A stretch of 64,000 bases of DNA from Escherichia coli (GTDB taxonomy: Bacteria > Pseudomonadota > Gammaproteobacteria > Enterobacterales > Enterobacteriaceae): assembly GCF_002854065.1 (NCBI RefSeq), contig NZ_CP024147.1. One strand, given 5' to 3'. Below the pieces are notes generated by a model. It was not told the origin of the DNA. It saw nothing but the letters and a program-made list of their open reading frames with translations, and made no database searches. This document shows positions 44,494 through 45,226 of the stretch, piece after piece (positions within the stretch are counted from its first letter, which is position 1; each line of letters starts with the position of its first letter). Made by a program: the position numbers and the translations under genes.

Positions 44494-45226
44494 GGATGCG
44501 TCGCGTGGCGCATCCGACACCATGCGCCGATGCCTGATGCGACGCTGACGCGTCTTATCATGCCTACAGGCCTGAACCGTAGGTCGGATAAGGCGCTCGC
44601 ACCGCATCCGACACCGTGCTCAGTGCCTGATGCGACGCAGGCGCGTCTTATCATACCTACAGGCCTGAACCGTAGGTCGGATAAGGCGCTCGCGCCGCAT
44701 CCGACACCGTGTGCCGATGCCTGATGCGACGCTGATGCGTCTTATCATGCCTACAGGCCTGAACCGTAGGTCGGATAAGGCGCTCGCGCCGCATCCGACA
44801 CCGTGTGCCGATGCCTGATGCGACGCTGATGCGTCTTATCATGCCTACAGGCCTGAACCGTAGGTCGGATAAGGCGCTCGCGCCGCATCCGACACCGTGC
44901 TCAGTGCCTGATGCGACGCAGGCGCGTCTTATCATACCTACAGGCCTGAACCGTAGGTCGGATAAGGCGCTCGCGGCGCATCCGACACCGTGCGCCGATG
45001 CCTGATGCGACGCAGGCGCGTCTTATCATGCCTACAGGCCTGAACCGCAGGTCGGATAAGGCGTTCGCGCCGCATCCGACACCATGCGCAGATGCCTGAT
45101 GCGACGCAGGCGCGTCTTATCATGCCTACAGGCCTGAACCGCAGGTCGGATAAGGCGCTCGCGCCGCATCCGACACCATGCGCCGATGCCTGATGCGACG
45201 CTTACCGCGTCTTATTATGCCTACCC
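44494..45226. repeat. tandem array of about 8 REP-containing units, period about 94 bp
   Basis: Motif tgcctgatgcgacgc recurs at 44531, 44624, 44718, 44812, 44905, 44999, 45093, 45187; each unit holds paired REP palindromes. Confidence 0.9.

Follow-up and report, generated by a model that had tools for sequence, protein, structure and literature searches.

The window analyzed here, a 64,000-nucleotide stretch of Escherichia coli contig NZ_CP024147.1, carries a tandem array of repetitive extragenic palindromes (REPs) of about 730 bp, at positions 44490-45224, between the genes prpE and codB, which we named from the RefSeq annotation of strain XJ34 (100% identical over 1901 bp). Tandem Repeats Finder (TRF) reports a single array at 44509-45224, with a period of 94, 7.6 copies, 93% matches, 0% indels, and a score of 1206, and the motif GCCTGATGCGACGC marks eight unit heads (44532, 44625, 44719, 44813, 44906, 45000, 45094, and 45188) at a spacing of 93 or 94 nt. 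The initial annotation of this DNA had placed a tandem array of REPs between prpE and codB, an identification borne out by TRF, by matches to the Z2 and Y consensus sequences of REPs, and by the RefSeq flanks. Its description of eight near-identical units of about 94 bp at 44494-45226 was also essentially right, given the TRF period of 94 and the eight heads. The count of eight therefore holds, though not the implied single REP per unit, as each unit contains two opposed REPs, a Z2 and an inverted Y.

The stretch from the prpE stop codon to a conserved ACTGTTTTTACACC motif encloses the array, which consists of seven complete 93/94-bp units followed by a terminal half-unit, the eighth Z2 REP (45188-45224). 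Within each complete unit, a forward Z2 REP, an 11-nt linker (AGGCCTGAACC), an inverted Y REP, and a closing linker of 12-13 nt (ACCGTGCGCCGAT and variants) follow one another, giving two palindromes per unit; the period is 93/94 bp because the tail-to-tail linker measures 11 nt. With eight Z2 REPs, seven inverted Y REPs, and one degenerate leading palindrome, which begins 5 nt past the prpE stop codon, the array comprises 16 palindromic units. The Z2 REPs are forward imperfect palindromes of 36-37 nt (GCCTGATGCGACGC-loop-GCGTCTTATCATGCCTAC) with 32-34 of 37 positions identical to the published Z2 consensus, and they have the Z2 length, 37 nt with the GACGC..GCGTC stem extension. The Y REPs are inverted imperfect palindromes of 35 nt (GTAGGTCGGATAAGGCG-loop-CGCATCCGACA) with 29-30 of 35 positions identical to the Y consensus on the minus strand, the mismatches lying mainly in the loop, apart from a compensated change in one stem pair. 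The CTTATC..CCTAC tails switch between plus and minus strand all along 44554-45224. The CTAC/GTAG tetranucleotide is present in all eight Z2 REPs and in five of the seven Y REPs (the other two read GCAG), and every Z2 tail (44554-45224) reads ATCATGCCTAC, ATCATACCTAC, or ATTATGCCTAC, ATCATGCCTAC being a locus-specific G-to-T change. The features of the locus are as follows.

44490-45224, plus strand: whole array (leading palindrome, seven full units, terminal Z2), supported by TRF, unit slicing, and seven Rfam naRNA4 matches; a BIME-2
44490-44519, plus strand: leading degenerate REP-like perfect palindrome, 13-bp stem and 4-nt loop (-23.2 kcal/mol, z = -5.9; 21/35 to the Y consensus)
44532-44567, plus strand: Z2 REP no. 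1 (34/37 to the Z2 consensus)
44579-44613, minus strand: inverted Y REP no. 1 (29/35 to the Y consensus)
44625-44660, plus strand: Z2 REP no. 2, tail variant ATCATACCTAC (33/37 to Z2)
44672-44706, minus strand: inverted Y REP no. 2 (30/35 to Y)
44719-44754, plus strand: Z2 REP no. 3 (33/37 to Z2; hairpin of -15.5 kcal/mol with two 1x1 mismatches)
44766-44800, minus strand: inverted Y REP no. 3 (30/35 to Y; hairpin of -17.4 kcal/mol with a 2x2 internal loop)
44813-44848, plus strand: Z2 REP no. 4 (33/37 to Z2)
44860-44894, minus strand: inverted Y REP no. 4 (30/35 to Y)
44906-44941, plus strand: Z2 REP no. 5, tail variant ATCATACCTAC (33/37 to Z2)
44953-44987, minus strand: inverted Y REP no. 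5 (29/35 to Y)
45000-45035, plus strand: Z2 REP no. 6 (34/37 to Z2)
45047-45081, minus strand: inverted Y REP no. 6, GTAG mutated to GCAG (30/35 to Y)
45094-45129, plus strand: Z2 REP no. 7 (34/37 to Z2)
45141-45175, minus strand: inverted Y REP no. 7, GTAG mutated to GCAG (29/35 to Y)
45188-45224, plus strand: terminal Z2 REP no. 8, loop 1 nt longer, tail ATTATGCCTAC (32/37 to Z2; hairpin of -12.5 kcal/mol; weakly terminator-like)
42598-44484, plus strand: prpE, the upstream gene, with the array in its 3′ untranslated region (UTR) (open reading frame [ORF]; RefSeq annotation of the 100% identical strain XJ34)
45377-46636, plus strand: codB, the downstream gene (ORF; RefSeq annotation)
45261-45289, plus strand: σ70-like promoter match upstream of codB and downstream of the array (9/12 hexamer matches, 17-nt spacer; weak, no more than shuffles give)

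We found that the array and the similarity among its units lie far beyond chance. Folded as RNA, the whole array reaches -379.6 kcal/mol, compared with -304 ± 8 kcal/mol for shuffled sequences (z = -9.2), and single palindromes reach -12.5 to -23.2 kcal/mol (z from -3.9 to -5.9). The folds contain REP-type mismatches, which in Z2 are two 1x1 mismatches and in Y take the form of a 2x2 internal loop, and adjacent inverted REPs can alternatively pair with each other as a doublet hairpin of -41 to -42 kcal/mol. Any two units differ at 2-8 of 93 positions, and this variation is confined to the hairpin loops and the 13-nt linker, with the stems unvaried. The closest unit pairs are 1 and 4, 2 and 5, and 6 and 7, and the array, shifted by 281 nt, matches itself at 94.4%, so that part of it arose through duplication of a three-unit block.

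Bacterial interspersed mosaic elements of type 2 (BIME-2) are defined by a Z2 and a Y arranged as a REP/inverted REP pair around a short S linker, with short s, l, or r flanking motifs, and they occur in multiple tandem copies, with a unit sequence that is constant within a locus and a copy number that varies among strains (PMC3333891). The array matches this definition in its Z2/Y composition, alternating orientation, linkers of 11-13 nt without a long L, and tandem multi-copy organization, as well as in its extragenic position, since the interval from the prpE stop (44484) to the codB start (45377) contains no annotated coding sequence (CDS). Seven units also match the Rfam family naRNA4 (RF02564) on the plus strand, at 61.6-70.5 bits against a gathering score of 59.5, and these are the sole gathering-level Rfam matches in the window; the leading palindrome together with the next Z2 scores 46.8 bits, below that threshold. 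Scores are higher on the plus strand, the one in the sense of prpE transcription, than on the minus strand. The alignment runs from the Y hairpin through the linker to the Z2 hairpin and reveals a compensated G:C-to-U:A change in the Y stem and a C·U mismatch in the Z2 stem. Architecture and family assignment are thus established, and as an overall explanation we consider very probable a BIME-2 in the prpE 3′ UTR that, by analogy, would stabilize mRNA, attenuate read-through, and provide gyrase sites. A CRISPR-like reading was dismissed, as there are no unique spacers and the apparent spacers are the second repeat plus two short conserved linkers.

For the distribution of the element, we searched 5,426 complete E. 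coli genomes with two joined 700-bp flanks, which matched in 5,230 genomes and found no match in 196. Unit numbers (in Z2 REPs) were taken from the inter-flank distance in two evenly spaced samples, with 111 distinct ranks, drawn from a redundant collection; the following figures describe these samples and are not a census.

1 unit: 28 genomes (25%), e.g., ISHS7
2 units: 52 genomes (47%), e.g., K-12 and B2-type strains
3 units: 12 genomes (11%), e.g., LR-50
8 units: 10 genomes (9%), e.g., O157:H7
12 units: 1 genome (1%), PapRG-06-5
Interrupted or partly deleted: 8 genomes (7%), IS621 being among the causes

Alleles with five and six units are likewise present at the locus, outside this 111-genome tally, so that the anticipated strain-to-strain variability is confirmed with 1, 2, 3, 5, 6, 8, and 12 units across E. 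coli genomes. Alleles differ in whole units only: the one-unit allele of ISHS7 equals the window allele minus seven internal units, and the 12-unit allele of PapRG-06-5, a baboon isolate, holds about 24 palindromic units. The 8-unit array of O157:H7 has an order of unit variants unlike that of the window, which points to reshuffling of the arrays by recombination or conversion. The locus is hypervariable, and the 8-unit state is simply one of its alleles rather than a special structure. We also scanned one genome per species for an exact 40-mer (Z2 tail, linker, and Y tail), a query that misses divergent alleles, including that of K-12. The sole match was in E. whittamii, and, as only exact matches count, absence from other species is not implied. 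At its prpE-codB locus, E. whittamii carries a 3-unit array with a 95-bp period, with the leading hairpin and a Z2 tail variant as in the window. The element at this locus is therefore older than the split between E. coli and E. whittamii, with length alone being unstable. All alleles examined, that of E. whittamii included, keep at least one Z2 REP and the leading hairpin.

Some alleles depart from this pattern at their edges. B2-type strains have a true inverted Y REP in place of the degenerate leading hairpin, and in Ecol_656 (L015, about 748-790; B2-like, 96.9% flank identity) the GTAG of the Y REP overlaps the prpE stop (GAG TAG GTCGGATAAGG), so that the REP abuts the prpE coding sequence. 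In AST205, only 40% of the flank query matched, within 544 bp, which suggests a deletion of the end of prpE and the start of codB, and EM22-18-53 has an irregular interval of 131 bp at the locus. In JNEC-KY171 (L007), prpE is annotated as a pseudogene with an internal stop.

The locus also receives insertions. Flanks were split in up to 314 of 5,233 records (about 6%), and in all five split-flank genomes inspected (L003 [2541-4151], L007, L008, L009, and L010), IS621 lies in the last Z2 REP, beside codB. IS621 is an IS110-family element with a bridge-RNA recombinase, and it is joined after ...CTTATCAGGCCT, in agreement with its published natural target, ATCAGGCCTAC. As far as the insertion junction, the sequence of the terminal Z2 in these five strains is ATCAGGCCT. 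The exact target is retained by the terminal Z2 of K-12, LR-50, and strain 26a and is found in none of the eight Z2 REPs of the window array; no IS621 left end was found in the window. The locus may be a recurrent landing site for IS621, for which one ancestral insertion and repeated targeting are both possible.

The array follows prpE, the last gene of the PrpR/σ54-controlled prpBCDE operon. The earlier premise that prp is σ54 driven is consistent with the sequence, in which an exact match (TGGCACACCCCTTGCT, 38797-38812) to the consensus TGGCAC-N5-TTGC lies 46 nt upstream of prpB. Between this promoter and the prpB start, there is also an exact match to the consensus of integration host factor (IHF), TATCAACTTGTTA, at 38832-38844 on the minus strand. 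The sole promoter-like match for codBA, listed above, is located downstream of the array, and the promoter scan found no promoter belonging to the array itself.

Given this arrangement, the following mode of action can be proposed. RNA polymerase transcribing prp would enter the array, and the transcript would fold into up to 16 consecutive hairpins, which would block 3′-to-5′ exonucleases and thereby define and stabilize the 3′ end of prpE mRNA. The same hairpins would attenuate read-through toward codBA, in part via Rho, with codBA transcribed from a separate promoter that would lie beyond the array. These expectations are drawn by analogy from the effects of REP325, a BIME-2 of strain MG1655. 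Its deletion raises expression of the downstream gene about 8-10-fold and lowers the upstream mRNA, and it is expressed as a ladder of hairpin-ended transcripts with partly Rho-dependent attenuation; genome-wide, tandem gene pairs separated by REPs show upstream-biased expression (bioRxiv 10.64898/2026.03.23.713779). In addition, transcripts terminated by Rho carry REP hairpins at their processed 3′ ends (PMC6061677). As DNA, the Y REPs would serve as preferred, transcription-independent cleavage sites for DNA gyrase, since gyrase cleavage sites are enriched in BIME-2, chiefly in Y REPs, and remain when transcription is blocked by rifampicin (PMC6379681). The first hairpin, so close to the prpE stop codon, may also slow terminating ribosomes, since REPs at most 15 nt from a stop codon are reported to stall them (Liang et al. 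2015, as cited in PMC12306157). Gain and loss of units could proceed through unequal recombination, slippage, or amplification mediated by the TnpA-REP (RAYT) protein; from sequence, it cannot be told whether TnpA-REP or plain homologous recombination drives copy number.

Several points weigh against this interpretation. All functional statements for the array are inferred, being carried over from other BIME-2 elements, and the REP325 authors themselves describe effects that depend on context and mRNA half-lives that are not uniformly changed (bioRxiv 10.64898/2026.03.23.713779). Ribosome stalling is a weak expectation, because the leading hairpin is a degenerate palindrome and not a canonical REP, and the supplementary text of the Topo-Seq study mentions neither prpE nor codB. 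Most of the array is dispensable, given that about a quarter of the sampled genomes keep just one Z2 REP. Intrinsic termination was considered as the main mechanism and rejected: the array hairpins lack adjacent U-tracts, which makes such termination unlikely, and the terminator scan flagged only the last Z2 REP, loosely, with the tail TTATTATG, a weak match and no more than shuffled sequences yield. A run of five T residues (about 45231-45235) begins roughly 10 nt past the last Z2 stem, and the internal hairpins have no T-run. Finally, the array has no rut-like excess of C over G, its GC skew of about -0.05 being near-symmetric, which says little either way.

These points also bear on the roles that had been suggested at the outset. 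Action as an mRNA stabilizer, terminator, or gyrase site is documented in the literature for the class. IHF binding, suggested alongside, does not apply: IHF is bound by the long L linker of BIME-1 (PMC3333891), and an array with linkers of 11-13 nt contains no match to the IHF consensus (WATCAANNNNTTR) anywhere along its length. As for the idea that the sheer size of the array insulates prp from codBA, about 72% of the sampled E. coli genomes have one or two units, which indicates that array length is not required at the locus; insulation by size is therefore not supported by the population data, whereas attenuation of read-through by the element as such is, by analogy, plausible.

The same population data raise the question of whether the array does anything for its neighbors. 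It is possible, though in our judgment doubtful, that it is neutral, selfish, or junk, that is, a tolerated REP/BIME amplification whose copy number drifts with no selected role in prp or cod. A copy number ranging from 1 to 12, with that same 72% majority at one or two units, the tolerance of IS621 insertion in about 6% of genomes, the decay of GTAG to GCAG in two Y REPs, and a literature that stresses context-dependent and often undetectable REP effects are all in keeping with neutrality. Yet every allele examined, E. whittamii included, retains at least one Z2 REP and the leading hairpin, the stems are conserved while the loops and linkers vary, and REP325, which has the same architecture, alters its neighbors 8-10-fold. 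A functional basal element with neutral extra units may be the case, and would be compatible both with neutrality and with the BIME-2 role proposed above. Conversely, unit number could act as a heritable expression dial, such that the 16-hairpin allele (this lineage and O157:H7) would, compared with the alleles of one or two units in K-12 and B2 strains, impose stronger Rho-assisted attenuation of propionate-induced read-through into codBA, form a stronger gyrase hot spot, or both, with the replacement of ATCAGGCCTAC by ATCATGCCTAC additionally shielding expanded arrays from IS621; taken jointly, we consider these claims speculative and unlikely.

The Rfam matches suggest another reading, in which the units are genes for naRNA4-type nucleoid-associated RNAs whose transcripts bind HU, bridge cruciform REP DNA, and condense the chromosome. 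Seven units do exceed the gathering score of RF02564, and Qian et al. (2015) reported that REP325/naRNA4 condenses the nucleoid in an HU-dependent manner (PMC4550694). A 2026 study, whose authors include the senior author of the 2015 paper, found, however, that deletion or overexpression of REP325/naRNA4 leaves nucleoid volume unchanged, that no stable ternary complex of HU, cruciform, and naRNA4 forms, and that REP-REP pairs show no long-range Hi-C contacts. Moreover, the RF02564 model was derived from one REP325 unit, the match reflects the Y, linker, and Z2 sequence common to all BIME-2 units, and the promoter scan found nothing within the array, so this reading appears improbable. It is more improbable still that the eight-copy count is an artefact of a collapsed or expanded repeat, a concern raised initially and understandable in principle for eight 94-bp copies that exceed the length of short reads. 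Independent complete genomes refute the concern, since they carry 8-unit arrays that are identical or nearly so. Over the 1901-bp region, XJ34 and XJ6-3 show 100% identity and two further genomes, one of a human isolate and one of a wastewater isolate, show 99.8%; the same order of eight units recurs, with 98.5% identity, in over 20 complete genomes that originate from many laboratories, and O157:H7 also has eight units. Nor do the nine ORFs of 40-92 aa on both strands of the array, expected from the start to be spurious, probably encode small proteins, which we regard as the remotest of these explanations. The four longest have no Pfam match, none is annotated as a CDS by RefSeq in any allele inspected, and the ORFs come and go with unit number, as a by-product of a G+C-rich repeat that lacks stops in some frames.

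Descriptions of BIME-2 arrays, covering their copy-number variability, their affinity for gyrase, and their action as terminators and stabilizers, date back to the 1990s, and the subject was taken up again in 2026. This type of element, the way it varies, and the functions suggested for it are thus already in the literature and do not constitute a discovery. For annotation, the region is best labeled as a repeat (BIME-2, 16 REPs), its internal ORFs should not be taken as genes, and the naRNA4 matches should be read as "BIME-2 unit" and not as seven small RNA genes. The RefSeq records of the K-12 locus and of REP325 contain no repeat features, and hence no official REP number can be assigned. 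Beyond annotation, the locus offers a natural series of alleles, with prpE and codB separated by 1, 2, 3, 5, 6, 8, or 12 units, in which the effects of hairpin number on termination, mRNA stability, and gyrase recruitment could be compared.

The array belongs to a REP family that is dispersed through the 64-kb window, where five other BIMEs of one or two REPs were found.

23771-23849: short REP/BIME, one or two palindromes
39782-39862: inside the prp operon, between prpB and prpC, a Z2-like REP, a 10-nt linker, and an inverted Y with the GTCGGAT variant, as in the array
47949-48027: Y REP and inverted Z-type REP between the convergent codA and cynR
51428-51488: short REP/BIME, one or two palindromes
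52135-52168: short REP/BIME, one or two palindromes

In E. whittamii, the prpB-prpC element is duplicated (L020, 1088-1282; period 92, 2.1 copies).

Compared with known systems, the array shares with REPIN/RAYT (TnpA-REP) elements the ability to form doublet hairpins, at -41 to -42 kcal/mol. Binding and cleavage by TnpA-REP need the GTAG tetranucleotide and stem mismatches (PMC3333891), both of which are present in most array units, with GCAG in two Y REPs; no tnpA-REP gene is adjacent to the array, outside which no search was made. BIME-1 elements (RIP or IRU, with Y and Z1 REPs) are likewise inverted pairs of the same REP superfamily, but they are single-copy and combine Z1 with a long conserved L linker bearing an IHF site, whereas the array is multi-copy and combines Z2 with 11- and 13-nt linkers. 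Identity as BIME-1 was therefore rejected, in view of the Z2-length palindromes, the short linkers, the missing match to the IHF consensus, and the multiple copies.

The closest parallel is REP325, in the yjdM-yjdN intergenic region of MG1655. Both follow the layout invY-(Z2-linker-invY-linker)n-Z2, with n = 5 in REP325, and each occupies the 3′ UTR of the gene before it, the two being oriented alike with respect to transcription. REP325 differs in its period of 100 bp, which results from a Z2-to-Y linker of 17 nt instead of 11, in its canonical GCCGGAT and CAGGCC stems, and in having six Z2 REPs compared with eight here. It also sits within an operon, yjdMN, whereas codBA, downstream of the present array, has its own promoter region, and the function of REP325 has been tested experimentally. 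With respect to the BIME-2 family as a whole (Gilson/Bachellier classification, summarized by Ton-Hoang et al. 2012, PMC3333891), we found no categorical differences; the locus departs from it by the G-to-T change in its Z2 tails (ATCATGCCTAC) and by a compensated C:G-to-T:A change in its Y stems. Its only mildly notable point is length, as the annotated REP clusters of MG1655 contain 1-12 units and this allele, with 16 palindromic units, is longer.

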